Shown here: positions 5,870-62,306 of the stretch, piece by piece
Position numbering within the stretch: position 1 is the stretch's first letter
How the letters are laid out: each line of letters opens with the position of its first letter
DNA from: an uncultured virus (IMG/VR IMGVR_UViG_3300017761_005195)
Lineage: Duplodnaviria > Heunggongvirae > Uroviricota > Caudoviricetes
Direction: 5' to 3' (one strand)
DNA: 64,000 nt
Virus record (IMG/VR): IMGVR_UViG_3300017761_005195
Translations under genes and position numbers: made by a program
The notes under the pieces: generated by a model
Seen by the model: the letters and a program-made list of their open reading frames with translations, nothing else
Told to the model about the DNA's origin: nothing
Databases searched by the model: none

Positions 5870-5891
5870 TAATAAATAGATATATAAACAA

Positions 5892-47595: not shown

Positions 47596-47624
47596 AAAAT
47601 GTAAATTGTTTTACAAAAAATGTA

Positions 47625-48644
47625 CTAAAACTTAGAAGTGAAATACATCTTTTCTAGTTCATCTGTTGAGTATGAATCTAATTCAGATTGAAGGGTTAGA
47701 TGGTTTTCCTTTGTAGCTTTCATATCATAGATTCTCATTATGAGTTGTTTCCTCCAAGTAAAGTCGTGTGAATAACCCCCTTGATGTCTATTGCTTTCAG
47801 AAGTACCAATAACTGTGTTTTTGGATGTTGTTGTATAGTCTAGTTCTGGGTTAATGTGGCAGAATTCTAGTCCTTTCACTTTTGAGTGGTGTGTATTAGA
47901 ATCGAAATATTTCCAAGAGATAGGGGTTTTATAGTAATAGTCTACAAGGTAGAATTCTCTTGGTGCATATCCTTTAGTAGCCCAGAAATCTTTAATATCT
48001 TGTGGGGTGTCAATTATACTAAGTATATCAATAAGTCTTTCTTCGAATATTTTAATAGCTTGGGAGAATCCACACTGGTCGGACTTTCTAATTCCATTCG
48101 GAAGAAGGGTAGAATCATCAGTTTCCCATTTTTGGATATCAGATACTCTTGACTGTCTAGTTCCACGGTTCTTATGTGGTGAACCAGGTTTAGCTTTCAT
48201 ACCAGTCCTTAATACGGTTTCATTTAAAACTTTATTTTTATCCTTTTGAAATAAGATTTCTTCACTAATCGTAGCTGCTGGACTTCCTTTAGCTTGGAAT
48301 ACCCAGGTTGAAAAGGTAGTGAACTGTTTTTGATATTGTGGGTATTTATTAGTGAATTCAGACAGCCACTTTTTAAGTGTTGAGTATTTTTCTGGTTCAA
48401 TAACATATTCGTTTATGGTGTCTGAAAGTTCCTGAGTCAATTGGATTTCCTCTATAAGATTACTATTTAGTAGATCATTGAACTTATCAATATTAAGGAG
48501 ACTATCTTGCCCTTGGCAATAAATTTCGGTTTTATAAGACTTCTTAGTAGGCACTTGTTGGAAAACTATAATAGAGTTTTCTACTAAATAGCTTTTCTGT
48601 CCTGTTACGACCGATGTTATAACTTTATAATATTTTTTTTTCAT
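47625..48644 (-). CDS. putative restriction endonuclease (HNH/beta-beta-alpha-Me type)
   Basis: FCHINP...N.......SNRHQG motif next to the methyltransferase. Confidence 0.55.
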   Translation of the reverse strand: MKKKYYKVITSVVTGQKSYLVENSIIVFQQVPTKKSYKTEIYCQGQDSLLNIDKFNDLLNSNLIEEIQLTQELSDTINEYVIEPEKYSTLKKWLSEFTNKYPQYQKQFTTFSTWVFQAKGSPAATISEEILFQKDKNKVLNETVLRTGMKAKPGSPHKNRGTRQSRVSDIQKWETDDSTLLPNGIRKSDQCGFSQAIKIFEERLIDILSIIDTPQDIKDFWATKGYAPREFYLVDYYYKTPISWKYFDSNTHHSKVKGLEFCHINPELDYTTTSKNTVIGTSESNRHQGGYSHDFTWRKQLIMRIYDMKATKENHLTLQSELDSYSTDELEKMYFTSKF

Positions 48645-48930: not shown

Positions 48931-48981
48931 ATGGGTACAAAGGTAATAATTTTATTTGAGATTTCCAAAAGGAGTTTAGAG

Positions 48982-48997
48982 TGTAGATATATGTTAG
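48982..48997 (+). other. candidate attI-like site
   Basis: TGTAGATATATGTTAG directly before a solo cassette; identical at 50835, one mismatch at 61948. Confidence 0.55.
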
Positions 48998-49003
48998 TTA
49001 TAG

Positions 49004-49183
49004 TTAATTTATCTTTATTTCCTTGTAGTATTTCTTTTTACCTTTGTAGATACAATCTTCAACATTAACATCATCACCATTTAGTTTTTTAGATAAACTA
49101 ACTATAACATCAGATATATCCAATTTTTTATCCAATGTTAATTCAACTTCTGTTCCATTTACTTCTACTTTACCTTTTATCAT
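49004..49183 (-). CDS. solo-cassette ORF (KKLDISDV leader type)
   Basis: 59 aa; body 48997-49108 bounded by GTTATAGTTAATTTATCT / AGATAAACTAACTATAAC. Confidence 0.6.
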   Translation of the reverse strand: MIKGKVEVNGTEVELTLDKKLDISDVIVSLSKKLNGDDVNVEDCIYKGKKKYYKEIKIN

Positions 49184-49239
49184 AATTTTATCTTTTTAAT
49201 TTTAAAAAACTGTATATTCTAATATAAAAAAATTATTTA

Positions 49240-49470
49240 TTATTTCTTTTCAACCAAGACCCAATTATGTTGTCCGGTATTAATAACGATGGCTTGGTGT
49301 TTTTCACCATCAAACCCTGTATACTCTAAGGTTTTCTGGGTACTTTCTCTTACTTCAAGAGGGTCATATGTTTTATGTGCAAAGATTATTATGACTCCAA
49401 TAAAAAAGATAGAGAAGATTACTGCTAAGGCCGCCTTTTGTGGTGCAGATAACGAATTAATATTTTTCAT
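49240..49470 (-). CDS. membrane-anchored hypothetical protein
   Basis: One TM helix; TATCTTTG box upstream. Confidence 0.6.
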   Translation of the reverse strand: MKNINSLSAPQKAALAVIFSIFFIGVIIIFAHKTYDPLEVRESTQKTLEYTGFDGEKHQAIVINTGQHNWVLVEKK

Positions 49471-49508
49471 ATGGGTACAAAGATATTAACTTTATTTGAA
49501 ATTTCCAA

Positions 49509-49760
49509 TTAATCTAACAATTCTTCAATTTTAAAATTTCTATACTCTTCTAACTTCATAAAGTTTGATCTTTCAAATAGTCCAAGATAATCCCCATCTG
49601 ATGAAAATAATCTTGCCAAATTTAAATAAAAGAAATCGGATGTAGTAAAAATTTGACCATTTTTTATTCTTATAGGAATTTCCGTATTCCACGGCCAAGG
49701 CTCCTGGCGTGCTTCTTCACAATTTTTTATACAGATTACTTTGAATTCATAATTCTCCAT
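49509..49760 (-). CDS. hypothetical protein
   Basis: 83 aa; C-terminal RNFKIEELL; its 3' end is duplicated at about 49763-49822. Confidence 0.6.
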   Translation of the reverse strand: MENYEFKVICIKNCEEARQEPWPWNTEIPIRIKNGQIFTTSDFFYLNLARLFSSDGDYLGLFERSNFMKLEEYRNFKIEELLD

Positions 49761-50130
49761 AACTAATCTAACAATTTTTCAATTTTAAAATTTCTATACA
49801 CTTCTAACTTCATAAAGTTTGAGTTATCGAATACCTTAAATTCCAATTTTATTTCCATACGACAAAGATAATGAATTATTCTAATATAAAAAAATTATTT
49901 AATATATTTGTTTTTTTCAAAAAAATCAATTATCTTTGTATCGGTTCAAATTTTTAGTCGGTTCTTATATTATGGTGGGGAGCAAACCCAAGGTGTATCG
50001 CCGGCAGGTCGCCCTTTTTTATATAAAAAAAAATAAGCGAATTACCTTCGATTAACCTTCCATTTTTCTCTGGCTTCTGTCATAGTGTTTCAATGACAAT
50101 ACAAAGATAGGGAAATATTCTATCACTTCC

Positions 50131-50189
50131 AAATTTATTTTAAGATTTCGTAATGATTGGTTTTTTTCACTTGCCAGTTTGGTTAAAGG
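50131..50189. repeat. direct repeat flanking the 50167-50724 gene, copy 1
   Basis: atttattttaagatttcgtaatgattggtttttttcacttgccagtttggttaaa also at about 50761-50816. Confidence 0.85.
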
Positions 50190-50724
50190 TCATAATTATA
50201 AGGGATTTGTTGGGTTTTAAGTCTAACTGCTTGCGTGGATTAATCCAGTCCCAGAAATCTTCATTTGAATTATCGATATGATTTTTGATATCTAAGGATT
50301 CAAATTTTTTCTGTAAGGACTTTGATTTCCCTATATTTTGGTTTATAATACTTTCTATATAATTTAGAACCTCTTGGCCAGCATTTCCAATGAAATTACC
50401 ATTATCATCTATTTTATCAATGTGTCCTATTTTAAAGAAAATAGAATCATCTTGAGAAACATCTAGTATTTCAGAAATTTTATTATCTCTAATTTTAAGT
50501 GGGTCTATTGTATTAAGCTTGTAAAAATCATCTAATGATTTAATAGAGCCATTTATTTCAAGACCTAATCTACTAATAGCTGGTCCGATAGTTTTATACT
50601 TGTTAGCATCAAACCAATTTTGTGAGAATTCATCAGAACATTTATTTTTCCACTTTACGAAATAACCATCACCTTGTGCATAGTCATATAACTTAAAGGG
50701 GGTTCTCCAAACAATATATTTCAT
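50167..50724 (-). CDS. hypothetical protein
   Basis: 185 aa; TATCTTTG box 4 nt before ATG. Confidence 0.65.
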   Translation of the reverse strand: MKYIVWRTPFKLYDYAQGDGYFVKWKNKCSDEFSQNWFDANKYKTIGPAISRLGLEINGSIKSLDDFYKLNTIDPLKIRDNKISEILDVSQDDSIFFKIGHIDKIDDNGNFIGNAGQEVLNYIESIINQNIGKSKSLQKKFESLDIKNHIDNSNEDFWDWINPRKQLDLKPNKSLIIMTFNQTGK

Positions 50725-50760
50725 AAAACAAAGATACTAACTTTATTTGAAAAAACCACA

Positions 50761-50819
50761 ATTTATTTTAAGATTTCGTAATGATTGGTTTTTTTCACTT
50801 GCCAGTTTGGTTAAAAGGT
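50761..50819. repeat. direct repeat flanking the 50167-50724 gene, copy 2
   Basis: Near-identical to 50131-50189. Confidence 0.85.
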
Positions 50820-50834
50820 GGAAAATGGGGTTAT

Positions 50835-50850
50835 TGTAGATATATGTTAG
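50835..50850 (+). other. candidate attI-like site at the head of the cassette array
   Basis: TGTAGATATATGTTAG then TTAGTAGT; first cassette starts at its final G. Confidence 0.55.
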
Positions 50851-50863
50851 TTAGTAGTAATGT

Positions 50864-51097
50864 TTATTTAGGTGTTCCTGTAATTATAACTTTACTACTA
50901 ATTTCTGATGATTTTGGATAACATTCATCCCACATTTTTTGTAGTTGTTCTGGCGTATATCTTCTTTTCAAATCTTCCAAATCATCAGAAATTGGATAGT
51001 TTGGTCTAAATCCGTTATAAACACTACTACTAACATCAGATATATGTAATTTTTTATCTGATTTATCGAGTTCTCCGCTATTATTATCTTTATCCAT
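50864..51097 (-). CDS. cassette 1 ORF (starts inside attC-like loop)
   Basis: KKLHISDVSSS reads through the TAAC core. Confidence 0.65.
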   Translation of the reverse strand: MDKDNNSGELDKSDKKLHISDVSSSVYNGFRPNYPISDDLEDLKRRYTPEQLQKMWDECYPKSSEISSKVIITGTPK

Positions 51098-51157
51098 ATT
51101 ATTTAAGTTTATTGTTTCAATTTAAGTAAAAACTACATATATCTGTAATAGTTATAA
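51028..51157 (+). repeat. attC-like site A (ISDV family)
   Basis: TAAC at CAGATATATGTA ... TACATATATCTG taata GTTA. Confidence 0.8.
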
Positions 51158-51165
51158 GTAATAAA

Positions 51166-51480
51166 TTAAAAACCAGTTTGTCTAAAATCTTTACACATCT
51201 TAGCAATTATATCTCTACTTTTGTAAGATTTTTCTATTTCTTCTTTTGATAGAAAATAAACTTCACTATTGATACAATAGTTAAGAAATAGTGATGATAT
51301 ATGTTGTAAAAATAGAAAAATCTTACTCCTAACATCATAGTCAGAAGTATCCATATTACCAATAAAAGATTTTAGAGAAACTTGAATATGAAATTCTATC
51401 TTTTCATCATCAAGTCTCAATGTTTCATCAACTATTTTTTTACTAAATTCGTAATCTTTATATTCTAATTTCATATTCAA
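51166..51480 (-). CDS. cassette 2 ORF
   Basis: About 104 aa between sites A and B. Confidence 0.65.
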   Translation of the reverse strand: MNMKLEYKDYEFSKKIVDETLRLDDEKIEFHIQVSLKSFIGNMDTSDYDVRSKIFLFLQHISSLFLNYCINSEVYFLSKEEIEKSYKSRDIIAKMCKDFRQTGF

Positions 51481-51499
51481 ATGTTTTTAATTTACATAC

Positions 51500-51553
51500 T
51501 TATAACAAATGATAAACAACATTAAAACGATTGTTTATCATCGGACGTTATGT
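51500..51553 (+). repeat. attC-like site B (short 54-bp family)
   Basis: TAAC aa ATGATAAACAA cattaaaacga TTGTTTATCAT cggac GTTA. Confidence 0.85.
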
Positions 51554-51564
51554 GTAATAATTTT

Positions 51565-51822
51565 TTATCCGCCTAACTCTGAAATTCTATTTTGAATTTT
51601 CTTTTTTAAATTAAGAAACCCCTCTTTTTGTTGTTTCTCCATTTCTTCAACAGATAGATTTCTCATTTTCGCTTTCATCTTTTTAATAACATCACTATCT
51701 TTACCAATATTATCAATATCCATATCAACATATCTTTCTAATTCTTTAAGATATTCTATATCTGTTGATTTTTCAATATCCTTATTAATGTCAAAGTTAT
51801 TAAAATTTTCTAAGTATTTCAT
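51565..51822 (-). CDS. cassette 3 ORF (MKYLENF leader)
   Basis: 85 aa with its own TATATA motif upstream. Confidence 0.65.
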   Translation of the reverse strand: MKYLENFNNFDINKDIEKSTDIEYLKELERYVDMDIDNIGKDSDVIKKMKAKMRNLSVEEMEKQQKEGFLNLKKKIQNRISELGG

Positions 51823-51887
51823 AATTTAAGTTTATTTAGTTTATATATAAAAATTCAAAATAGAAATCCCTCCCACAAAATTACTAC

Positions 51888-51941
51888 ACATAACAAATGA
51901 TAAACAACATTAAAACGATTGTTTATCATCAGACGTTATAT
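51888..51941 (+). repeat. attC-like site C (short family)
   Basis: One mismatch from site B between the cores. Confidence 0.85.
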
Positions 51942-51947
51942 TCAATT

Positions 51948-52208
51948 TTAATATTCGAATGGTTTATCCATATGTGTTTTTAATAATTGAACAAACTTTT
52001 CATAAATGATATTGAAGTCTTCATCTTCTAACTCCAATGAAGAATTTTCTTCCATTACTTTTGCTAATTGATATATCATGTCAATATCATTTATTCCAAC
52101 ACTATTTAGTGCTAAATTTGATGCTAAGATGTTTCTATTACCACAAACAGGATAATTAAGGTTTGTGTAAAAAGTTTGTTCAATTATTTTTCTTACTTTA
52201 TCTTTCAT
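51948..52208 (-). CDS. cassette 4 ORF
   Basis: 86 aa. Confidence 0.65.
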   Translation of the reverse strand: MKDKVRKIIEQTFYTNLNYPVCGNRNILASNLALNSVGINDIDMIYQLAKVMEENSSLELEDEDFNIIYEKFVQLLKTHMDKPFEY

Positions 52209-52236
52209 TGTATTTGTATTTGAATATTATAACTAA

Positions 52237-52328
52237 ATATAACAAGGTATATATGAAATACCTTATAAAGTTTATACTAAATTTAAAGTTTTGTGGTAAG
52301 GTACTTCACATATACCCAACCGTTATAA
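52237..52328 (+). repeat. attC-like site D (GGTATAT family)
   Basis: TAAC aa GGTATATATGAAATACCT ... AGGTACTTCACATATACC caacc GTTA. Confidence 0.85.
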
Positions 52329-52339
52329 GTAGTTAAGAA

Positions 52340-52424
52340 AGTGGTGGTTGGACTCGAACCAACGTCCTCCGAAATTCCTGATTGGTTACAGCAAATCGTA
52401 CTCTCCCATCTGAGTTACACCACT
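52340..52424 (-). ncRNA. tRNA-like element with expanded anticodon arm (cassette 5)
   Basis: AGTGGTG/CACCACT acceptor, ACTC/GAGT D-stem, GTTGG-TTCGAGT-CCAAC T-arm; about 30-nt anticodon region containing CTGTAAC. Confidence 0.65.
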
Positions 52425-52435
52425 TTCTTAACTAC

Positions 52436-52557
52436 TTATAACAACAAATATAAAACATTTTATTCGTTTTTCAAAATAAAGTTTATACTAATTGTCAAGT
52501 TTATTCATTTTATTTAAGTTCTGTGTTAAAACGTTTTATATTTGCAATACGTTATAG
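52436..52557 (+). repeat. attC-like site E
   Basis: TAAC aa CAAATATAAAAC ... GTTTTATATTTG caatac GTTA. Confidence 0.8.
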
Positions 52558-52566
52558 GTAATAAAA

Positions 52567-52731
52567 TTAAACCTCATACCTATAAAGTATAGTCAAAAAC
52601 GAACCACTGTCTAATATACTTATAATAGCATCCGCATCAATGTTCCTGTTTTGCAAACCTTCATCAATACGTTCAAGTTCGTTTTTCCCACAAGTAAAGT
52701 AACCAATTCTTTTTTTAATAGTAATATTCAT
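52567..52731 (-). CDS. cassette 6 ORF
   Basis: 54 aa (MNITIKKRIGYFTC...), below the ORF-track cutoff. Confidence 0.55.
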   Translation of the reverse strand: MNITIKKRIGYFTCGKNELERIDEGLQNRNIDADAIISILDSGSFLTILYRYEV

Positions 52732-52750
52732 AATGTTTAATTTTACATAC

Positions 52751-52844
52751 CTATAACAAAGTGTATAAGAAAGTTTGCTACAGCAGTTGTGATAATTTGA
52801 AAATTAGTTTAAGCAAACCTTCTCATACACCCAATCCGTTATAT
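52751..52844 (+). repeat. attC-like site F
   Basis: TAAC aa aGTGTATaAGAAaGTTTGCT ... AGCAAACcTTCTcATACACc caatcc GTTA. Confidence 0.8.
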
Positions 52845-52848
52845 TCAA

Positions 52849-53049
52849 TTAAATTATTGTTTTGATTTTTAATAACTTATCAGATATTCTATAATCCTCG
52901 TTTTTATTATGATATTTTATCAATTCATCTATTTCATTATTTGAGACTTCCAAACCTTCTCTTAGTATCTGATAAGTTTTCCAAACCATTGAAAAATTAT
53001 TGTGTGATGATTTAAAACCATCCATTTCTATTTTATCTAATATATCCAT
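52849..53049 (-). CDS. cassette 7 ORF b
   Basis: 66 aa. Confidence 0.6.
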   Translation of the reverse strand: MDILDKIEMDGFKSSHNNFSMVWKTYQILREGLEVSNNEIDELIKYHNKNEDYRISDKLLKIKTII

Positions 53050-53050
53050 C

Positions 53051-53176
53051 TTAATCTTTAAATTTGAATAAGTCTTTTAATTTACCTGACCATGTTGTAT
53101 CTATACAACGCATCAATATAAATATAATAAACCACAATATAATACCACCTAAAATTAAAAGACTTATTTTTATCAT
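53051..53176 (-). CDS. cassette 7 ORF a, small membrane protein
   Basis: 41 aa hydrophobic ORF coupled to ORF b. Confidence 0.5.
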   Translation of the reverse strand: MIKISLLILGGIILWFIIFILMRCIDTTWSGKLKDLFKFKD

Positions 53177-53217
53177 AAACAAGATTTTTATAATTTGTAA
53201 AACAATAATTTAACTAA

Positions 53218-53303
53218 ATATAACAACAAATATAAGAAATAAATTTTGATTTATCTAGTTTTTTATAGGAAAAATTTACTTCTCATATTTGCAAACGTTA
53301 GGT
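53218..53303 (+). repeat. attC-like site G (CAAATATAAGAA family)
   Basis: TAAC aa CAAATATaAGAAaTAAAT ... ATTTAcTTCTcATATTTG caaac GTTA. Confidence 0.85.
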
Positions 53304-53492
53304 TCAATCATTAATTTGTTTTGAACGTTCTATTACTTTCTTCAATAATTCATCTTTCCATTTAGAAAATATTTCAACCGACCTGTCTGTTGTATCAGTT
53401 TGGTATAATGATGAGTAATATCCTTTATCAAAGAATTCACCACAAATATTTTCTAATTCACTTTCTGTTAAAATTACAAATCCCTTTTCCAT
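53304..53492 (-). CDS. cassette 8 ORF
   Basis: MEKGFVIL start; own TACCTTTG promoter at 53517-53524. Confidence 0.6.
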   Translation of the reverse strand: MEKGFVILTESELENICGEFFDKGYYSSLYQTDTTDRSVEIFSKWKDELLKKVIERSKQIND

Positions 53493-53542
53493 ATTATTTA
53501 TTGTTTTTAATTTATACAAAGGTAAAACAAATTAATGACAAA

Positions 53543-53596
53543 ACCTAACAAATGATAAACAACATTAAAACGATTGTTTATCATCAGACGTTATGT
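53543..53596 (+). repeat. attC-like site H (short family)
   Basis: Same internal sequence as site C. Confidence 0.85.
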
Positions 53597-53776
53597 TTAA
53601 TTATTATAATATTTTGACATTTTTTTATCAACATCACTAATTTTTATTCCAATTTTAGTTATCCAATCACTAAATTTATTACTTGAAATTAATGTAGTAA
53701 TTAATGATAATATTACTATTATAATTGTAATAAAAATTAAAATAACCCACCACATTATCCCTATTATTTTTTTCAT
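53597..53776 (-). CDS. cassette 9 ORF, membrane protein
   Basis: MKKIIGIMWWVILIF hydrophobic helix. Confidence 0.6.
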   Translation of the reverse strand: MKKIIGIMWWVILIFITIIIVILSLITTLISSNKFSDWITKIGIKISDVDKKMSKYYNN

Positions 53777-53801
53777 ATTGTAAAATATTATAATAACTAA
53801 A

Positions 53802-53855
53802 ACATAACAACAAATATATTGCATTAAAACGACAATATATTTGCAACCGTTATAT
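53802..53855 (+). repeat. attC-like site I (short-family loop, different arms)
   Basis: TAAC aa CAAATATATTG cattaaaacga CAATATATTTG caacc GTTA. Confidence 0.85.
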
Positions 53856-53861
53856 GAAATA

Positions 53862-54065
53862 TTAATTTTTAGAGTGCCAGTCCCATTTTGTAATCCAACA
53901 TACTTCCAAATTCTTCATCAACCAACCTCTCGATATTTTACCATTTTCGTCAAATATACTCTTTATTTTACTAATTTGATATGAAGAATTTGTAACCCAT
54001 CCTATCCAAGCTTCATCATAACCTTCAAGTTTAACCTTGTCGCCAATTTTAAGTTCTGTAATCAT
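53862..54065 (-). CDS. cassette 10 ORF
   Basis: 67 aa, LKIGDKV SH3-like start. Confidence 0.6.
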   Translation of the reverse strand: MITELKIGDKVKLEGYDEAWIGWVTNSSYQISKIKSIFDENGKISRGWLMKNLEVCWITKWDWHSKN

Positions 54066-54093
54066 ATTATTTAGTTTTAAAAATTAATACATC

Positions 54094-54178
54094 ATATAAC
54101 AACAAATATAAGAAATAAATCTTACTTTGTCTATTTTTTAATGAAAAGATTTACTTCTCATATTTGCAACCGTTAGAA
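54094..54178 (+). repeat. attC-like site J (CAAATATAAGAA family)
   Basis: Near-identical to site T. Confidence 0.85.
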
Positions 54179-54191
54179 GTAATAAAATAAA

Positions 54192-54449
54192 TTATATATC
54201 AAACTTCTCTGATTCAAGTTTTTTAATCTTTCTATCAAGTATTTCATTAAACTCTTCAGTTGAAATATTATATCCCTTAATTCTTTCAAACATAGATTTC
54301 AAAACTTGAATCGCATAGTCAATCTGACCATTTATTATTTCCTTTTCCATATCATCCATAGATTCATTTATTTTACTACTTCTAACATCAGATATATTCA
54401 AGTTTTCTTCTGACTCGTTAAATCTTTTTATGTGTTTTAAATCTTTCAT
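54192..54449 (-). CDS. cassette 11 ORF (leader encoded in attC-like loop)
   Basis: MKDLKHIKRFNESEENLNISDV reads through the core. Confidence 0.65.
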   Translation of the reverse strand: MKDLKHIKRFNESEENLNISDVRSSKINESMDDMEKEIINGQIDYAIQVLKSMFERIKGYNISTEEFNEILDRKIKKLESEKFDI

Positions 54450-54513
54450 CTTCGTAAGTTATTTTTTAGTATATATTAAAAGAAAACCTAAATATATCTG
54501 AGTATCGTTATGT
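54380..54513 (+). repeat. attC-like site K (ISDV family, carries promoter and start codon)
   Basis: TAAC at CAGATATATT ... AATATATCTG agtatc GTTA; TAATATATA on minus strand in loop. Confidence 0.8.
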
Positions 54514-54582
54514 GTAAGTGTTCCGTTCATCATTCTAATTAACATTTAGGTAGAAAATTTTTAAAGAAAAACCCGCCACACA

Positions 54583-55008
54583 TTATAAAAAAGATTGACC
54601 ATCCCAACCATAAACCACACCGTATTCATCAACCATTAAACCTAATTTTCTTGCTAAATCATCAGCCTTATAATCATTTGGTAATCTCCCAAATAATGCT
54701 TCATCATCACTTGGAGAATCTAATCTTTGAACTTGCCAATAATACCCATTCAACTTTTTACCATTAAAAGTTCTCTCACTGTGATATTTCTCGTTTGGTG
54801 CTTCTGTATCGGAATCGAATACAGCCCAACCTTGTTTATGAGTATAATCACTATATTCACTTTGAAACCAATCTATGAATTTTTTAATTTTATCAAAATC
54901 ATAAAATATTTTATCATCAAAGTCTTTCAAATTACCATCCTTATCAATATATGATTCATTCAAAAACTCTCGTATGGTTGTTTTAATAAATTGTTTTAAG
55001 TCTTTCAT
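54583..55008 (-). CDS. cassette 12 ORF (MKDLKQFIKTTIREFLNE leader)
   Basis: 141 aa. Confidence 0.7.
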   Translation of the reverse strand: MKDLKQFIKTTIREFLNESYIDKDGNLKDFDDKIFYDFDKIKKFIDWFQSEYSDYTHKQGWAVFDSDTEAPNEKYHSERTFNGKKLNGYYWQVQRLDSPSDDEALFGRLPNDYKADDLARKLGLMVDEYGVVYGWDGQSFL

Positions 55009-55120
55009 CCTTTTCTTTTATATATAAATATTAAGAATTAAAATACCAACCCTTCTTTTTCTTTTAAAATTTTTGTTCAGTTCTTCGAATAAACATTTTA
55101 CCTTAATAATCCACACCTAT

Positions 55121-55174
55121 ACATAACAAAGTGTAAAAAACATTAAAACGATTTTTTACACTCAACCGTTATAA
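55121..55174 (+). repeat. attC-like site L (short-family loop)
   Basis: TAAC aa AGTGTAAAAAA cattaaaacga TTTTTTACACT caacc GTTA. Confidence 0.85.
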
Positions 55175-55184
55175 AACATAAAAA

Positions 55185-55379
55185 TTATTGCGGTTCTAAC
55201 TGAGCAATATGGAATGCAAATATATAACCATTTATTTTTCCATCATACATTGTATCCATACCAGACCATTGTCTTCCTTCAATAACAATTCCATAATGCT
55301 CATTTCGCTTATCTATAACTTTGAACTTTGATAATTTGCCTTTAAGTTTATCCATATAATACATAATTTTTACATTCAT
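55185..55379 (-). CDS. cassette 13 ORF
   Basis: Up to 64 aa; start codon uncertain. Confidence 0.55.
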   Translation of the reverse strand: MNVKIMYYMDKLKGKLSKFKVIDKRNEHYGIVIEGRQWSGMDTMYDGKINGYIFAFHIAQLEPQ

Positions 55380-55470
55380 ATAACAAGGTATATGTGAAAT
55401 ACCTCATAAAGTTTCTACTAATTATTTAAGTTTCGTGGTAAGGTACTTCACATATACCCAACCGTTATAA
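55378..55470 (+). repeat. attC-like site M (GGTATAT family)
   Basis: Near-identical to sites D and R. Confidence 0.85.
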
Positions 55471-55653
55471 GCCATTTTGGGAACCCCACTCTTGAAACAA
55501 CTTTTCCAGTTCTTCACAGTCATATACAGGCTCATCGCTTTCTCCCATAGTTACTGTCCAATTTTCACTTGAGTGCCTTGTGTATTTGTTTAGTTCGTTT
55601 TCATCTGTTTCAACATAAAAAACGATTGACTTTGTTGCGTTTATAATTTTCAT
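55465..55653 (-). CDS. cassette 14 ORF
   Basis: 62 aa; stop codon is the TTA of the GTTA core. Confidence 0.65.
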   Translation of the reverse strand: MKIINATKSIVFYVETDENELNKYTRHSSENWTVTMGESDEPVYDCEELEKLFQEWGSQNGL

Positions 55654-55682
55654 TTTATTTTAAATTTGTGAAGAAAAACGGC

Positions 55683-55814
55683 TTATAACAGCACATACCC
55701 AAAAGAGGGGTTTTAGTGGTTATATGAACATTTTTACTTCGATTAAACATTTGTTTTTATATTAAATTTTGTGCTTCGTAATCACCTCCTTCGGGTATCT
55801 GCAAAATGTTATGA
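55683..55814 (+). repeat. attC-like site N
   Basis: TAAC aGCAcATACCC..AAGAGG ... CCTCcTTcGGGTATcTGC aaaat GTTA. Confidence 0.75.
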
Positions 55815-56030
55815 AACATATTTCCACACACCTATTTCCATAAACAAGTACTTTAGTGATTTGATTCTTCTATCCAAGTTATCATAATCAAAAGAATCGT
55901 TGCATTTACTTATGTTAATTTTTGCTTGTTTATATTCATCTATCAACTCTTCAATACGTTTCATAACATCAGATATATGTAATTTTTTATCTGTGTCATT
56001 AACTTCTGTGTTCTTATTTTCTGTATTCAT
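55809..56030 (-). CDS. cassette 15 ORF (starts in attC-like loop)
   Basis: DKKLHISDVMKR; stop codon in the GTTA core. Confidence 0.65.
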   Translation of the reverse strand: MNTENKNTEVNDTDKKLHISDVMKRIEELIDEYKQAKINISKCNDSFDYDNLDRRIKSLKYLFMEIGVWKYVS

Positions 56031-56090
56031 ATTATTTAATTTTTGTATTTCAATTTAAGAAAAAACTACATATATCTGTGTCCGTTATAA
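55961..56090 (+). repeat. attC-like site O (ISDV family)
   Basis: Paralogous to site A. Confidence 0.8.
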
Positions 56091-56105
56091 GTAATAAAAA
56101 TAAAA

Positions 56106-56288
56106 TTATTGATATAACACATATATACCTTCATAATCACCAAAAATAGTTAATTTTTCATTTGGTATATTGTAATCAAATTTTAGTCTATTACCTTCTG
56201 TGTCCCATACATCAGTTATGTATTCCGCTTTGATGAAAAATAAACTATTATTTCCATCATATTCTTTTCTTATTAATCTTGTTTTCAT
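56106..56288 (-). CDS. cassette 16 ORF
   Basis: 60 aa. Confidence 0.6.
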   Translation of the reverse strand: MKTRLIRKEYDGNNSLFFIKAEYITDVWDTEGNRLKFDYNIPNEKLTIFGDYEGIYVLYQ

Positions 56289-56312
56289 TTGTATAATTTT
56301 ATTTTTACATAC

Positions 56313-56422
56313 TTATAACAATGTGTAAAAAACATTTAAACGATTTTTTACACGCCAAAAAGCGGTTTTACATTTATTTAAGTTTTTCGGTGGCGTACCT
56401 CTCATATACGCAACCGTTAGCA
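56313..56422 (+). repeat. attC-like site P (hybrid of two families)
   Basis: Left part is a short-family hairpin; right end ctcatatacgcaaccGTTA resembles the long families. Confidence 0.65.
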
Positions 56423-56701
56423 GTAATTGCTAAGAGCCTTGATATTAATAAATCCTATTTCTTGGGCGTGTTCCATTGAAAAACTAACTGTGTAAACCTT
56501 CAACCCTTTTTCAATTGTTACTTTAACCATTGAACTAAAACTATCTATAAATATATTAGTTACATTATGGGTTATATCTTTACCTTCTTTTACATCGTAA
56601 AACCCTACACCCCAAGAAATAACACAACCGCAACTACTGCTAACAATAGGTTTATTCAATGCGGGGTTCCTGCTCCCAAATAACATTTTTAGTAATTTCA
56701 T
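56417..56701 (-). CDS. cassette 17 ORF (starts in attC-like loop)
   Basis: NPALNKPIVSSS reads through the core. Confidence 0.6.
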   Translation of the reverse strand: MKLLKMLFGSRNPALNKPIVSSSCGCVISWGVGFYDVKEGKDITHNVTNIFIDSFSSMVKVTIEKGLKVYTVSFSMEHAQEIGFINIKALSNYC

Positions 56702-56767
56702 ATTTTCTGCTTTTAAATTAATTTATCTGTTCAATCCCGCACTAAATAAACCTGCAAAACGTTATAA
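56638..56767 (+). repeat. attC-like site Q
   Basis: TAAC aa tAGGTTTATT..aTGCGGG ... CCCGCAc..AATAAACCTg caaaac GTTA. Confidence 0.8.
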
Positions 56768-56956
56768 AACATTTTTCAATACACCAAGTTCCTTTGATTT
56801 TACTAAAAATTCTGTTTCATCTTCCAAAGAAAGAGTTGAAAACAAATGATGTTCTACTAAATAAGATGGTGCGTTTGATGTAACCAAATCATTTAATTTA
56901 GCTTTATCCCAGAATTTTTCAACTCTTTCTTCTTGTTCTTTTGTTAATTTTTCCAT
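56762..56956 (-). CDS. cassette 18 ORF
   Basis: 64 aa; stop codon in core. Confidence 0.65.
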   Translation of the reverse strand: MEKLTKEQEERVEKFWDKAKLNDLVTSNAPSYLVEHHLFSTLSLEDETEFLVKSKELGVLKNVL

Positions 56957-56967
56957 ATTAAAACGTT

Positions 56968-57060
56968 TTATAACAAGGTATATGTGAAATACCTTATAAA
57001 GTTTCTACTAATTTTTAAAGTTTTGTGGTAAGGTACTTCACATATACCCAACCGTTAGTG
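56968..57060 (+). repeat. attC-like site R (GGTATAT family)
   Basis: Near-identical to sites D and M. Confidence 0.85.
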
Positions 57061-57074
57061 ATAATAAATTTGAA

Positions 57075-57386
57075 TTATTTAGTCTTATATAACTTACAAT
57101 CAAAATTATTTTCAGATAACATATCATTCATAAATCCGATGTGTCTATTTTCATCACCCTCTGGTTCAAATTTCACAAAAATGGAATAGTTATCTGAAAC
57201 TAATAGTGACCAATCCATAGGTTTTAATTTAACAGAATCATCATAATTTTGATTGATAAAGTTTATACCATCCAAAATCTCATCCATATCTGGACCTATC
57301 ATTTCAAATTTACTATCACTAACATTAGATATATTCAAGTTTTCTTGATGTTCGTTAAATAATTTAACGTGTTTTAAATTTTTCAT
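57075..57386 (-). CDS. cassette 19 ORF (leader in attC-like loop)
   Basis: MKNLKHVKLFNEHQENLNISNV. Confidence 0.65.
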   Translation of the reverse strand: MKNLKHVKLFNEHQENLNISNVSDSKFEMIGPDMDEILDGINFINQNYDDSVKLKPMDWSLLVSDNYSIFVKFEPEGDENRHIGFMNDMLSENNFDCKLYKTK

Positions 57387-57450
57387 CTTTGTTTATTATT
57401 TTTTAGTATATATTAAAAGAAAATCTAAATATATCTGAGTATCGTTATAT
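57317..57450 (+). repeat. attC-like site S (ISDV family)
   Basis: Paralogous to site K, including the promoter and leader. Confidence 0.8.
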
Positions 57451-57463
57451 TCAATACCAAAAA

Positions 57464-57703
57464 TTATTCAAATTCTATAATAAAAAAATCATCGAAGTCC
57501 ATATCACCAGCACCGTAAGTATAATTCACTTTCAGTTTTGTTTCAGATATTATATCATATCCATCATAAGCGTGATATGTTCCAATCGGTTTTTCTTCAT
57601 TACTAAATCGTTCAATATACTTACTACGAGCAAAGTCATTTACTACTGCTCTATGATTAGCAACCTTAGCTAATACTTCTAATGATTTTTTTATATTTTC
57701 CAT
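57464..57703 (-). CDS. cassette 20 ORF
   Basis: 79 aa. Confidence 0.65.
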   Translation of the reverse strand: MENIKKSLEVLAKVANHRAVVNDFARSKYIERFSNEEKPIGTYHAYDGYDIISETKLKVNYTYGAGDMDFDDFFIIEFE

Positions 57704-57726
57704 GTGTTAATAATTTTTGATACTAA

Positions 57727-57812
57727 ATATAACAACAAATATAAGAAATAAATCTTAATTTGTCTAATTTTTTAATGAAAAGATTTACTTCTCATATTTG
57801 CAACCGTTAGTG
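57727..57812 (+). repeat. attC-like site T (CAAATATAAGAA family)
   Basis: Near-identical to site J; last site of the continuous array. Confidence 0.85.
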
Positions 57813-57964
57813 GCAATTTGAGCCAAATAAAAAATTATATTCGTTCATATACCATTTTTCGTCTATTGAATGTTGTATAAATCTAAGTGGATGCGTACCG
57901 GCATCATGCCATGTTGCCCAGGTCATAAAACAAAGATAAGGGAAATAAGTTAGAAAAACAAATA

Positions 57965-58004
57965 AAAAAAAATAGTTAAGAGTATTTCTTAACTATTTTT
58001 TTTT
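57965..58004. terminator. probable terminator
   Basis: A-run TAGTTAAGA..TCTTAACTA T-run, downstream of 58027-58521. Confidence 0.6.
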
Positions 58005-58026
58005 ATAAGTTCCTCCTTGGTCATTA

Positions 58027-58521
58027 TTATTCCCAGCTGTCTCGTACTGGTCTTCCTCTGTCTCTCCACTCTTTATCAGCTTTTACACTCTTACCTGGAA
58101 TGACTTTACCATTTGACCATTTCTCCCATACATCACCATTGAGCTGATATACCTCTACTCCACTAACGTTAACCTTATTCTTAAAATCATTAACTATAGT
58201 ATCATAATCACCAGGTCCTCTAAACTCTGGTAGGTCAGGGAAAGTATCATGAACGATTCCAAAGATTCCATCAGGTTGAAATCCTTTACCTCCCATTCCA
58301 AGTGGAACTTTAACACCAAATTCTGAGTTTAGTTCTGACTTACTTATCATATCTACATTTTTTTGATTTTCACTAGGTATTCTTAACTTATCAAAAATCA
58401 CCTTCTTACAAGCAAGTTCAAAACTATACTCATTATCACGACTTTCTTGTCCACCAAATTCGTCATAGGCACTACCACCCTGAGCCTCATTAACAAACTT
58501 ATTGAATTTCTTAATAATCAT
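58027..58521 (-). CDS. hypothetical protein with IKKFNKFVNE leader
   Basis: 164 aa; AATATATA upstream. Confidence 0.7.
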   Translation of the reverse strand: MIIKKFNKFVNEAQGGSAYDEFGGQESRDNEYSFELACKKVIFDKLRIPSENQKNVDMISKSELNSEFGVKVPLGMGGKGFQPDGIFGIVHDTFPDLPEFRGPGDYDTIVNDFKNKVNVSGVEVYQLNGDVWEKWSNGKVIPGKSVKADKEWRDRGRPVRDSWE

Positions 58522-58590
58522 ATATTGTTATATTTTTTTTTATATATTTAATTGAAAAAACAGATTATTTAATTCTAATATAGAATGTTT

Positions 58591-58818
58591 TTATGAGTTT
58601 TTTATTTCTGATAATTTGCTTATAACATTATCAATTACACCTTTACAAAAATCTCTTTCCAAAGTTAATGTAAGTGCTTGTTCAGCATCTATTCCAACGC
58701 CATTTGACGCTCTTTCAATTATTTGTTCATCTGTAAGCATTCCAAATTCTGCAAGATGCTTCATCAAGTCATTTTGCGTTGGAAATAGTTTTCCTAATAT
58801 GTGTCCACTTTCATTCAT
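58591..58818 (-). CDS. hypothetical protein
   Basis: 75 aa. Confidence 0.55.
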   Translation of the reverse strand: MNESGHILGKLFPTQNDLMKHLAEFGMLTDEQIIERASNGVGIDAEQALTLTLERDFCKGVIDNVISKLSEIKNS

Positions 58819-58905
58819 ATTTGATTTGGTTTTAATTTACTAAATTAAAAATTAGAGGCATCTACTAATAGTTTATCTAAATAGTCTTTAGTAAAAAACT
58901 CTTCA

Positions 58906-59100
58906 TCACTCATAATTACATTTATCACATATTCGCTCTCTAACATCATAAGTTAGATTTTCTTCATTCTCTTGAATTGTGAGTTCCAACCCACAAACAC
59001 AGCACATAACATCAGATAAACTCAATTTTTTATCGAGCAATCCAACTCTATTCAAGTGCTGATTTAACCAATTGTTTTTGTAATATATTTTCTTTTCCAT
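58906..59100 (-). CDS. cassette-type ORF starting in attC-like loop, Zn-ribbon-like
   Basis: KKLSLSDVMCCVC...CDKC. Confidence 0.55.
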   Translation of the reverse strand: MEKKIYYKNNWLNQHLNRVGLLDKKLSLSDVMCCVCGLELTIQENEENLTYDVRERICDKCNYE

Positions 59101-59133
59101 AATAAAAACTGAGTTTATCTGCAACCGTTATAA
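59004..59133 (+). repeat. attC-like site U
   Basis: TAAC at CAGATAAACTCA ... TGAGTTTATCTG caacc GTTA. Confidence 0.8.
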
Positions 59134-59149
59134 GTAATAAAAACTAAAA

Positions 59150-59371
59150 TTAAACTACCCCAACTTTATATATAGTTCTATTACCTAAATTTTCTTTTGA
59201 AAAACTTTTAATTACATCATTATTTTTGTGTGAAATAGCTTCCACATCCGAATTGTTTTTAAATTCTTCTAACACTTTACTTAATCTGTTAAAATATATT
59301 TGATTCCACAAAAATATACTAGTCCATCGTAAGTTTTTCAAAATAAAATCTGTTAATTTAGTTCTTTTCAT
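59150..59371 (-). CDS. cassette ORF
   Basis: 73 aa inside body 59127-59638 with matching ends. Confidence 0.6.
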   Translation of the reverse strand: MKRTKLTDFILKNLRWTSIFLWNQIYFNRLSKVLEEFKNNSDVEAISHKNNDVIKSFSKENLGNRTIYKVGVV

Positions 59372-59388
59372 TTGTTCAATTTTTAAAA

Positions 59389-59604
59389 TTATTTACCATA
59401 TATACTATTAACAAAAACTCTATTAGCACCTATTGTAAGTGATAGTTGATTTTGTTCTTTCATGAGTGTCTCAAATTGATTTTCTATTTTTAATCTATCT
59501 GAATTACTTTTTAACATATTAACCAATTTTTCCAACTCTATATCTCTTTTTGAAGTTAGAAAATCAATTTGTTCATTGTAATTTAATTCGAGTTTTTGTT
59601 CCAT
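59389..59604 (-). CDS. cassette ORF
   Basis: 71 aa in the same two-gene cassette. Confidence 0.6.
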   Translation of the reverse strand: MEQKLELNYNEQIDFLTSKRDIELEKLVNMLKSNSDRLKIENQFETLMKEQNQLSLTIGANRVFVNSIYGK

Positions 59605-59631
59605 TTATATAATTTTTTTAGTTTTTACTAC

Positions 59632-59668
59632 TTATAACAACAAATATAAGAAATAAATCTTACTTTGT
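59632..59668 (+). repeat. truncated attC-like site V
   Basis: Left arm of the J/T family only. Confidence 0.7.
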
Positions 59669-59778
59669 TTAAGTTCTGTAATCATATTATTTATTTTTCT
59701 AAAACCGCCACTTTTATAAAAAGTCTTTAGTAAAGGTAAGGAAATATTCTATCAATTCCAAATTTATTTTCCTGTATA

Positions 59779-59913
59779 TTATTCATATATATCAAAGGCA
59801 TCAATACCAACCATAGGGTCAAAATCTTCTTTAATATTTTCACTACTTCTAACATCAGATATATTCAATTCTGAGTTCTCGTTAAATCTTTTTATATGTT
59901 TTAAATCTTTCAT
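59779..59913 (-). CDS. short or remnant ORF with MKDLKHIKRFNE..LNISDV leader
   Basis: 44 aa; contains attC-like left arm at 59847. Confidence 0.45.
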   Translation of the reverse strand: MKDLKHIKRFNENSELNISDVRSSENIKEDFDPMVGIDAFDIYE

Positions 59914-60007
59914 CTCCTTTATTACATTTTATGTATATATTAAAAGAAAACCCAACAAATGTTTATCCGAAATAGATTTTAATATATAATGAAAATTGAA
60001 AAACTTT

Positions 60008-60649
60008 ATGAAGTATTTACAAAAATTTGAAAATTTTGATTCTACAAACGAGGAAATAAATCTCAAAAAGGCTTTAATTGGAGGGGCTATGGCCGGTGCT
60101 ATTGGATATGGAGTTTATCAAACCTCTCAGATAAATAAATTTGCTAAATTAGAAGATACTGAAGTTATATCAGGAATGAAGTTTAATCAATATGATGTTT
60201 ATGTAAATGATAAAACATTTAACTTAAATATATCAGAAGATGGTATTATTTCAGCAGAATGGTCTGAAGAGGATGAAAAAAATACTAACACATATAATTG
60301 TATAACTATACCAAATAAAACTCAAAAAATATGGATATCTTCAAATATGGATATGGATAATGGAATTTTTGTAAGTGGGAAACCAATTCCAGGTAGTGAA
60401 AGTATTTCTATTTCTGATTTAGATATTTATGACCAATCAGAAACTTATATAATTTATGAATCTCCTATGTTTTCTTCTGTTAATTATATTATTATGAATA
60501 AAGAACATAAACAAGGAGAAGATTTTGAGATTGAAAATAAAATGGGAAAATATATTTGTGATGAGTTAGATTCAAAAATATATATTTTCACCTTTAAAAG
60601 CTTCGGTGATGGGTCAATGGGTGGTGCTGGATCGGAAAGTGATTATTAA
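60008..60649 (+). CDS. hypothetical protein with MKYLQKFENF leader and hydrophobic segment
   Basis: NEEINLKKALIGGAMAGAIG; TAATATATA upstream. Confidence 0.7.
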   Translation: MKYLQKFENFDSTNEEINLKKALIGGAMAGAIGYGVYQTSQINKFAKLEDTEVISGMKFNQYDVYVNDKTFNLNISEDGIISAEWSEEDEKNTNTYNCITIPNKTQKIWISSNMDMDNGIFVSGKPIPGSESISISDLDIYDQSETYIIYESPMFSSVNYIIMNKEHKQGEDFEIENKMGKYICDELDSKIYIFTFKSFGDGSMGGAGSESDY

Positions 60650-60650
60650 A

Positions 60651-60676
60651 ATATAACAAATGATAAACAACATTAG
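60651..60676 (+). repeat. attC-like half site (short family)
   Basis: ATATAACAAATGATAAACAACATTA with no right arm. Confidence 0.7.
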
Positions 60677-60697
60677 GAAAATAATTATCTTTGTAAA

Positions 60698-60964
60698 ATG
60701 GAATATGAGAAGAATAAAATACAGGAATTAGAGGGGGAGATTTTTGAGATGGAATCTATTCTTAGGGACAATAGAGATAAGGAAAGAATTTATCAAGAGA
60801 TATTATCTGATATCAATAGTTCCATTATTAATTTATTTAAGAGAGAAGAAGAGAATATAAGATTTAATTTTGGGGAAGAGATTGATTATCGTCAGTGCAT
60901 GATTGGAATTAAAGAATATTTGGATAATATTAAATCTGTGTATAAGGGAAAGATTAATTTTTAA
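60698..60964 (+). CDS. hypothetical protein
   Basis: 88 aa; TATCTTTG 4 nt before ATG. Confidence 0.65.
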   Translation: MEYEKNKIQELEGEIFEMESILRDNRDKERIYQEILSDINSSIINLFKREEENIRFNFGEEIDYRQCMIGIKEYLDNIKSVYKGKINF

Positions 60965-60998
60965 TGGAGTTTGTGTAAACCACCGACCACCCGAAAAT

Positions 60999-61391
60999 CT
61001 ATATTACACTTAATAATTTTAATAATCCATCAAACTGATCACATAAGTAATATTTTTGATCAACACTGTGGTAAGAAGGTTCTCTACCAGAAACTGAGAC
61101 TTTCAAATCTATATTAATAGTAATAACTTTAAACCATTCATCTTCCATAGAACTTATTTCAATTTTAATACCCATTCTAGTTCTAGGTATTGATTCTTTA
61201 TGGAAAACAATAGTTTTTGATTCTGAGGCTGAAGTATACCAATCTAGGAAACCTTTTTTTTCCATAATTTCAATTATTTTATTTAGTTCAGTATCATTCC
61301 AAATGGAAATAACCCCAAATTTAATACATTGGTCACGATCAACTTCTTTATATTCACCACCAAATGATTCAAATAACTTCAAATGTTTCAT
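60999..61391 (-). CDS. hypothetical protein, DQ.DGLLKLL family
   Basis: MKHLKLFESF leader; DEWF...Y.CDQFDGLLKLL. Confidence 0.7.
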   Translation of the reverse strand: MKHLKLFESFGGEYKEVDRDQCIKFGVISIWNDTELNKIIEIMEKKGFLDWYTSASESKTIVFHKESIPRTRMGIKIEISSMEDEWFKVITINIDLKVSVSGREPSYHSVDQKYYLCDQFDGLLKLLSVI

Positions 61392-61765
61392 AGTTTATCA
61401 TTTAATAATTTTAATAATCCATCTATTTGATCTGCTTTATAAAAAGTAGATGAAGATATTGGAAAACGATTTGCTAGTCTATCAACATTAAACCCAAATA
61501 AAAAATATTCATCTTTTATTTTATAAATAAGTGATAACCCAACCCCACTTACATTTGTATTAAGCGTAAGTTCATATACCTCATTATCTAAATCTATCAC
61601 CTTAGGCGCTTTTAACTTTGTATTAGTCTCATCACATATAGATTTTATGATTTCTATTTCTCTATTAGTAAATGGTAATATATCATCTTGAGATTCCAAA
61701 AAATAATCTTCTGGAATTTCTTCATAATAATCTTTCGATTCATTAAATTTTTTCAAATGTTTCAC
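61388..61765 (-). CDS. paralogous hypothetical protein, DQ.DGLLKLL family
   Basis: GTG start KHLKKFNES; DEYF...YKADQIDGLLKLL. Confidence 0.65.
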   Translation of the reverse strand: MKHLKKFNESKDYYEEIPEDYFLESQDDILPFTNREIEIIKSICDETNTKLKAPKVIDLDNEVYELTLNTNVSGVGLSLIYKIKDEYFLFGFNVDRLANRFPISSSTFYKADQIDGLLKLLNDKL

Positions 61766-61947
61766 CTTTGTATTATAGTTTGATTTATATATAAATTTAA
61801 CAAAAACCAATTATTTAATCCTACCCAGGTTGATTTATTTTATCTGATTGATACAAAGTATAACCTAAACTAATTCATTTGACTGGCGACCCCTTTCTGA
61901 AAGAAATAGTCACTCTTTGACTCCCTCGGTAGAGGGTAGAGGTGATT

Positions 61948-61963
61948 TGTAGATATGTGTTAG
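61948..61963 (+). other. candidate attI-like site
   Basis: TGTAGATATGTGTTAG before solo cassette body 61963-62120. Confidence 0.55.
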
Positions 61964-61976
61964 TTAGAAGTAATGA

Positions 61977-62306
61977 TTAGACACCATCAGTTGGGTCTAT
62001 ACCCAAAAATATACAAATTCTGTATGATGTATCTGACCAAATACCTAAACCTCTATCAACATCGTTCATAAATTGTTGCAATTCACCCTTTGTGAGTGTA
62101 ATAGTATCACTACTTCTAACATCAGATATATTCAAGTTTCCCAATACCTCACTTTTTGTGGGTTTCATAACTTCACCACCACCCATTTCTGGCTTTAGAT
62201 TGTCAATCATATAAGGTCTTAATTTTCTACCTGTTGGAACTTCTGGTACTTGTCCAGAACCTTCCGCTGATTGGAATGTAGCTTCAAATGTCTTTAGGTG
62301 TTTCAT
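61977..62306 (-). CDS. chimeric ORF: MKHLKTFE leader fused through NLNISDV core to a cassette body
   Basis: 109 aa; GTTAGAAGTAATGAT / ATCACTACTTCTAAC ends. Confidence 0.65.
   Translation of the reverse strand: MKHLKTFEATFQSAEGSGQVPEVPTGRKLRPYMIDNLKPEMGGGEVMKPTKSEVLGNLNISDVRSSDTITLTKGELQQFMNDVDRGLGIWSDTSYRICIFLGIDPTDGV

Follow-up and report, generated by a model that had tools for sequence, protein, structure and literature searches.

We analysed a 64,000-nucleotide stretch of DNA from an uncultured virus (IMG/VR record IMGVR_UViG_3300017761_005195, Caudoviricetes), referred to here as the window. The region from position 49004 to 62306 holds hairpin sites that resemble the attC recombination sites of integrons, together with nine open reading frames (ORFs) that run out of such sites. 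The original prediction was that the TAAC core of these sites is read as a valine codon, so that a leader encoded by the site continues through the core into a gene body. This anatomy is correct, and the feature is real and widespread.

Nine ORFs read through a recombination core

A search of the window for TAAC...GTTA hairpins (the site finder) gave 20 attC-like sites on the plus strand between 51031 and 59130 and none on the minus strand. A site reported at 43739 was a false positive of the finder. It is still counted among the 192 leaders used below for the A at −3 and the motif tallies, and was removed from the folding, end-pairing, substitution and site-swap analyses.

The core is an in-frame Val codon in all nine ORFs (GTT on the coding strand, TAAC on the plus strand), and all nine lie on the minus strand. 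The start codon is located inside an intact two-armed site in six of them (50864, 54192, 55809, 56417, 57075 and 58906), as had been proposed. For ORFs 49004, 59779 and 61977 the site finder gives no intact site, and the near arm alone is visible. ORF 49004 has lost its far arm, while a homologue in the related locus L073 keeps an intact 125-bp site; ORF 59779 is a shortened remnant. The recurring peptides reported at the core are present in general, but the exact wording differs at three ORFs (KKLDISDV at 49004, NLNISNV at 57075 and NKPIV at 56417). The core peptide ISDV is the conserved arm read in frame, and other arms yield GA-V, PV-V and TD-V. The motif TAATATATA with the start MK.LKH.K.FNE was found where expected, at 54383, 57320 and 59850.

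The body of ORF 49004 contains no Met, and the first body Met is at position 34 in ORF 50864 and at position 39 in ORF 56417. Early internal Met codons are present in ORFs 54192, 55809, 57075 and 58906, and these four are not individually decidable.

The sites encode starts and leaders

Sites of the 110–140 bp class carry a loop ATG followed by 10–40 codons through the near arm and the core. The pattern of the ISD class retrieved 119 viral loci, from which 112 distinct sites were kept (107 from viral contigs and five from the window). An in-frame loop ATG is present in all 112. The Val frame opens into a body of at least 30 codons in 107 of the 112, against 1 and 4 for the other two frames, one of which has stops built into the arm, many of the loci being related. 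Three of the five sites without an open body are cut by the end of the locus. A fairer baseline is given by leaderless sites: open bodies lie behind 65 of 66 ISD sites versus 32 of 227 leaderless ones. The body side of ISD sites is open in 67/67 cases, whereas the segments on the opposite side are open in 23/58.

Leader substitutions by codon position number 99/76/137 (p = 1e−4), compared with 77/80/90 upstream of the ATG, in pairs picked by DNA identity. These counts supersede pN/pS (nonsynonymous to synonymous) ratios, which came out at 0.32 in leaders and 0.23 in bodies and are biased low because the pairs had been picked by protein identity. An A is found at −3 in 148 of the 192 leader starts; A at −3 is reported as a positive determinant of initiation for Flavobacterium (PMC6847099). 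Among 121 leader units, 27 bodies are without any Met and 54 without Met in the first half, and in 45 the stop codon is the far-core TAA. Whole domains of C5 and N6/N4 methylases and of exonucleases begin 7–23 residues after the Val. Forward arrays of bacteria with same-type sites show an antisense leader in 1/24 cases and a leader with a body in 0/24. The idea of a host −7 box in the arm of ordinary sites was dropped, the arm being palindromic. The data support the view that the sites encode a real start and a leader under coding-type constraint, and that many bodies have no start of their own.

An integron-like array with inverted genes

On sequence grounds, the region is an integron-like cassette array in which the genes are inverted relative to the attC polarity. 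It appears to work like an integron without being a member of that group, as the recombinase of related phages scores below the IntI cut-off. The sites have the attC layout, being co-oriented imperfect palindromes with R''/L''/L'/R' elements, and in 310 of 336 sites it is the bottom strand that forms the more stable fold. Cassette ends are self-paired: five or six of six flank bases match in 230 of 278 cases, with a shuffled mean of 2.4. The pairing is cassette-specific to 11 nt past the core and has a fixed mismatch at position 7. The tRNA-Tyr gene (52322–52442) is itself a cassette, whose ends pair over 25 nt. In three non-leader cassettes (52838–53224, 53297–53549 and 53590–53808) the ends pair over more than 20 nt, beyond the usual 11.

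A tyrosine recombinase of about 266 residues is encoded in related phages (Pfam finds it in 6 of 10 records, a search in 206 viral stretches); GenBank phages gave no integrase above 40% identity. Its YLF and HxLRH motifs are separated by about 25 residues. The integron-specific insertion, which has a known position in IntI, is lacking. Sites lie upstream of the integrase and divergent from it in 347 cases, and the other three arrangements together account for 15. The gene adjoins an array of at least two sites in 48 of 55 related loci with enough flank. In most of 49 loci an AT-rich attI-like consensus lies 35–52 nt away from the start of the integrase, and in 41 of the 49 it occurs together with a core paired with the end of the first cassette. 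Three window positions (48997, 50850 and 61963) fit this consensus and may serve as attI. A direct repeat of about 90 nt (50098–50187 and 50725–50815) flanks an ORF at 50167–50724, to the left of the second attI-like site, which is the place of the integrase in related phages. In locus L121 (1471–2193, minus strand), a late-type leader with a cassette body is joined to the recombinase's own catalytic half.

Integron genes usually point the same way as attC and are transcribed from the promoter Pc. Here this co-orientation is absent: the longest ORF is on the bottom strand in 217 of 227 non-leader units. Bacterial loci have 13 of 19 units forward, and at least two sites in 11 of 80 loci. Bacterial arrays L225, L248, L255 and L256 lie downstream of a co-oriented recombinase and have forward genes; the phage layout differs. 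Because the genes are inverted (attI and integrase to the left, top strand plus), the leader-bearing site is the cassette's own attC and the Val core its R''-like near end.

The features are collected in Table 1. A lone near half of a 48-bp class site is also present at 60654–60674, directly after a plus-strand ORF.

Table 1. Sites and fused ORFs of the array, with positions in the window.
Feature	Position	Strand	Remarks
attI-like site 1	48980..49000	+	Core G at 48997; AT-rich consensus match; L073 homologue of adjoining cassette also follows such a site
Leader-fused ORF, 25-residue leader + 34-residue body without Met	49004..49183	−	Far arm of its site lost
attI-like site 2, start of main array	50833..50853	+	Core G at 50850; no integrase gene adjoining
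Leader-fused ORF, 21 + 56 residues	50864..51097	−	Body behind about 12 leader families; weak part-match to large terminase
Leader-type attC-like site, 124 bp	51031..51154	+	Site finder
Nine non-leader attC-like sites, 48–116 bp	51503..54175	+	At 51503, 51891, 52240, 52439, 52754, 53221, 53546, 53805, 54097
Inverted cassettes with own starts, bounded by the nine non-leader sites	51503..54175		tRNA-Tyr cassette among them
Leader-fused ORF, late-type 21-residue leader + 64-residue body	54192..54449	−	Body related to native phage gene
Leader-type site K, 128 bp	54383..54510	+	TAATATATA motif in loop on minus strand
Three non-leader sites	55124..55811	+	At 55124, 55381, 55686; site finder
Leader-fused ORF, 21 + 52 residues	55809..56030	−	Met at body position 2 encoded by core flank
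Leader-type site, 124 bp	55964..56087	+	Site finder
Hybrid site: near part of 48-bp class + far part of 87-bp class	56317..56418	+	Sequence reading; missed by site finder
Leader-fused ORF, 19 + 75 residues	56417..56701	−	Leader partly from long host-like stem; first body Met at 39
Leader-type site, host-like class, 124 bp	56641..56764	+	Site finder
Non-leader site, 87 bp	56971..57057	+	Site finder
Leader-fused ORF, late-type 21-residue leader + 82-residue body	57075..57386	−	
Leader-type site S, 128 bp	57320..57447	+	TAATATATA motif in loop
Non-leader site, 80 bp	57730..57809	+	Site finder
Leader-fused ORF, 30 + 34 residues, four-Cys body	58906..59100	−	Paired far end not found
Leader-type site, 124 bp	59007..59130	+	Site finder
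Broken non-leader site, near arm only	59626..59671	+	
Remnant leader-fused ORF, 20 + 24 residues	59779..59913	−	Near arm at 59850; neither far arm nor paired far end present
attI-like site 3	61946..61966	+	Core G at 61963
Chimera: 56 native-gene residues + cassette	61977..62306	−	Joint six codons before Val core; near arm at 62117

Leader and body move as one unit

Among 13 homologous body pairs, the site on the leader side is kept in nine and the far neighbour in none. With more loci (25 pairs), 21 retain the site on the leader side and six retain the other site, in no case without the first. Loci L287 and L288 match cassette K (ORF 54192 with its site) from core to core, and the neighbours differ on both sides. 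By comparison of loci, cassettes move as units and their neighbours change at the far core, where the crossover would fall between the G and the TT of R'. From the core-to-core match and the kept leader-side sites, it follows that ordinary shuffling moves leader and body together. Recombination at the Val core had been proposed to join a ready-made module to arbitrary bodies. Leaders and bodies have indeed been recombined in nature with a combinatorial outcome, but the routine crossover was misplaced and the pairing is not arbitrary.

No close copy of cassette K was found in GenBank phages. The viral contigs gave nothing for the N-terminus of ORF 61977 or the body of ORF 54192, and a metagenome scan gave at least three loci. 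Contigs from 4 of 24 runs have joints that are mostly short-sided or with unknown inserts, perhaps from other phages, and were not used. In each of two runs, one contig joins the attI-like core at 61966 to the near arm at 62127, with the body skipped or replaced.

Leader exchange at the Val end

The same body was found behind different leaders in related genomes, as predicted, for ORFs 50864 and 54192. The 50864 protein has 77 matches; the body is shared by 75, of which 68 carry the core peptide. The leaders fall into about 12 families at 50% identity, a count for which the body anchor was set three residues too early in roughly half of the rows. Among 120 listed of 454 matches to the 54192 protein, 14 carry an almost unchanged body behind leaders of four families, and the 54192 leader heads 101 matches with different bodies in 57 families. 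Pairing is biased by class: late-type leaders precede the 54192 body in 14/14 cases and the 50864 body in 1/68, with leader class judged by eye and searches that lean towards the leader of the query.

Homology had been expected to break at the Val codon. It does so for a fixed body behind different site classes, but for a fixed leader the identity runs 3 to 8 residues beyond the Val (fading from V+4 to V+8 in a search-biased sample), and ORF 61977 departs from the rule. Relatives of its N-terminus continue differently, and its body elsewhere has ordinary leaders of 20–21 residues. From these alignments, ORF 61977 is a deletion chimera, in which the first 56 residues of a native gene are joined six codons before the Val. 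At the DNA level, loci L015 and L021 share one base 5' of the core and have bodies 92% identical, and loci L097 and L048 have 11 nt in common there. Leaders are truly exchanged at the Val end, though as a secondary event.

The conserved body of ORF 50864 (50864–51030) resembles positions 400–451 of a large-terminase profile (E = 2e−5), also in two homologues, and is possibly a captured fragment or a mimic. A structural model of the 50864 protein is of low confidence (predicted local distance difference test, pLDDT, 61.7), with an unstructured leader and two helices.

The late-type motif and the capsid

TATATA is found in the loop of 35 of 38 phage-style leaders and of 16 of the 154 others, most of those 16 being phage-style by eye. 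The motif had been called late-type. It does precede tail-fibre genes, 4/5 protease genes and 1/5 capsid genes, but topoisomerase, ligase and methylase genes as well, and the late label is borne out only in part. The genome-wide link between TATATA and phage-style starts is weak with crude start calls (odds ratio 2.7 in the loci, none in the window).

Locus L289 contains a gene without a site that shares the promoter block, the first ten codons and the body with cassette K. Because of this match, the loop of cassette K appears to reuse the start of a native gene, in a comparison that gives no direction of derivation. The prohead protease of T4 cleaves the sequences that carry proteins into the prohead. 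A gp23-like capsid protein and a gp21-like protease are present in 5/5 related-phage records. The start MK.LKH.K.FNE is presumably similar to the capsid-targeting peptide of T4. By analogy, the subclass with TAATATATA and this start might direct its products into the head, a proposal that we find slightly harder to accept than to reject. T4 sends foreign proteins into heads via a peptide of 10–20 residues, and in T4 too short N-terminal peptides are common to unrelated proteins (PMC5694885). The system here differs in that about 138 of the 192 leaders are not of this type.

The phage and its host

From its translations, the window reads as part of a T4-like giant phage, with ORFs resembling gp32, topoisomerase subunits, DnaK and collagen-like fibres. 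At least half of the window's words are found in 7 of 24 listed runs, all of them freshwater metagenomes, which indicates a freshwater origin. PHROGs gave a name to 3 of 34 window proteins, Pfam gave nothing above the cut-off for eight fused ORFs, and the tRNA was the sole Rfam match in the window. Two collagen-like ORFs with 18-nt repeats (4733–8747) are probably fibres. Adjoining the array (44529–48644) are a GHKL-like ATPase, a methylase with a specificity-like tail (PHROG match) and a nuclease-like ORF, the non-methylase names being given by eye.

The host is probably a member of the Bacteroidota, because the 80 closest cellular recombinases are mostly from this phylum and its chromosomes also carry this attC-like site type. 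Boxes of the form TAnnTTTG, the reported −7 consensus (PMC6847099), lie upstream of 24 of 111 window ORFs in a count without a control set. A Flavobacterium prophage-like region is among the carriers of the system. A close topoisomerase (56%) is present in only one of five tested records (G010), so the system seems to span diverse phages.

Proposed mechanism

Taken as a whole, the best explanation, and a likely one, is an inverted integron-like array in which the leader-coding attC moves with the body, accompanied by rarer exchange of leaders at the near core. A cassette would consist of a gene with a hairpin site in front of it. The IntI-like tyrosine recombinase, whose gene would lie elsewhere, in a co-infecting phage or in the host, would excise and insert leader and body together, with the folded coding strand as its substrate. 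Integrons recombine attC as a folded single strand, with resolution by replication. As the leader travels with the body, expression would be independent of the position in the array. A second, less frequent event at the near core would exchange leaders in one of two ways: through the hairpin of the opposite strand, which in classical attC sites recombines about 1000 times less often (PMC8946536), or through short homologies within the arm and core that the sites have in common. The fixed GTT, and with it the Val frame, would ensure that a new leader still reads on into the body. The leader subclass marked by TAATATATA and MK.LKH.K.FNE would reuse the 5' end of native phage genes.

Several observations weigh against this explanation. 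There is no integrase gene in the window, and 4 of the 10 records searched have none despite holding such sites. Three of three recombinases match TIGR02249 in two stretches and score 146–171 bits, against a cut-off of 265; hairpin recombination by the phage enzyme is therefore only an analogy. The second site class has a leader with a body in only 76 of 108 cases, and 40 of 388 units have a loop ATG that no open body follows. TATATA is not specific to structural genes. At the DNA level a different site (below 75% site identity) is seen in 6 of 31 pairs, two of them borderline, so that clear swaps are few, and most of them cannot separate site-specific from short-homology exchange.

A bolder version holds that the sites form an interchangeable expression-and-address library (promoter class, start and N-terminal tag, including the capsid-targeting class) swapped at the near core by the phage recombinase, the same event turning native genes into cassettes. 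The last step is suggested by the 54192 body and its site-less relative in L289. We regard this version as doubtful.

It is improbable that no site-specific enzyme acts now and that the sites are repeats, loops and bodies being swapped through short homologies by general phage recombination. The missing integrase, the hybrid, broken and half sites, the deletion chimera and the 11 nt shared by L097 and L048 agree with such a history. Neighbours that change exactly at the far core, cassette-specific end pairing with its fixed mismatch, and the fixed geometry of attI and integrase do not. Still less credible is a normal crossover at the Val core, by which each shuffle would set a leader before whichever body follows. 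It would account for a body that occurs behind many leaders and for a leader that heads many bodies, and the contigs joining 61966 to 62127, with unknown letters between, speak weakly for it. However, random shuffling would set leaders before cassettes with 5' untranslated regions, most pairs retain the leader-side site and none the other one by itself, open bodies lie on one side of the ISD sites, and the match of cassette K with L287 and L288 largely refutes it. That the read-through is a by-product, with proteins starting at internal Met codons and an incidental loop ATG, is hardly tenable: the early Met codons of four ORFs and the loop ATGs without a body would permit it, but not the late or absent Met in ORFs 49004, 50864 and 56417, the lack of Met within 28 residues after the anchor in 67 of 68 homologues of the 50864 body, or the codon-position bias of the leaders.

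Comparison with known systems

The inverted array resembles integrons and clusters of attC sites lacking integron-integrases (CALINs), including those borne by phages, in having a tyrosine recombinase beside an attI-like site (in related phages), co-oriented GTT-core hairpins and self-paired cassette ends; methylase cargo is shared with phage-borne integrons (PMC9892861). Phage attC sites and CALINs as such are already published in that work, whose main text nowhere uses the words Bacteroid, Flavobacter, jumbo or opposite. The preferred bottom strand is also a feature of integrons (PMC8946536), and Bacteroidota are among the phyla with integrons (PMC8618304). The differences from integrons are that the recombinase is shorter and scores under the IntI cut-off, that nearly all genes are inverted with the site preceding the gene, and that the sites encode the start and the N-terminus. 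No description of inverted arrays with leader-coding sites was found in the literature searched, which mostly excluded subscription journals and contained no supplements.

One recombination site would do three jobs: it moves a gene, expresses it wherever it has landed and codes for its N-terminus. Integron-like shuffling is extended to giant phages with a recombinase below the IntI cut-off. The arrangement accounts for a large set of small phage proteins sharing N-termini (454 matches for one such query). In traceable cases the cassette body, the native gene and the site can be aligned, which bears on how cassettes arise; if the library version were true, the genesis of integron cassettes would be directly testable.

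ORF-11 of attI1 in class 1 integrons is similar in that a short ORF in a recombination site helps poorly initiated genes, and it is a single platform element acting on the first cassette (PMC9410878). In contrast, the leaders described here belong to attC-like sites and move along with the cassette; they are joined in frame to the body and form many families. The attC families of chromosomal integrons offer a further comparison: among the Vibrio cholerae repeats (VCRs) of Vibrio, one site family is found on many genes that are not related, and homology stops at the R'' end; the sites are non-coding and follow the gene. The leader-type sites are alike in the first two respects; they differ in being coding and in preceding the gene.

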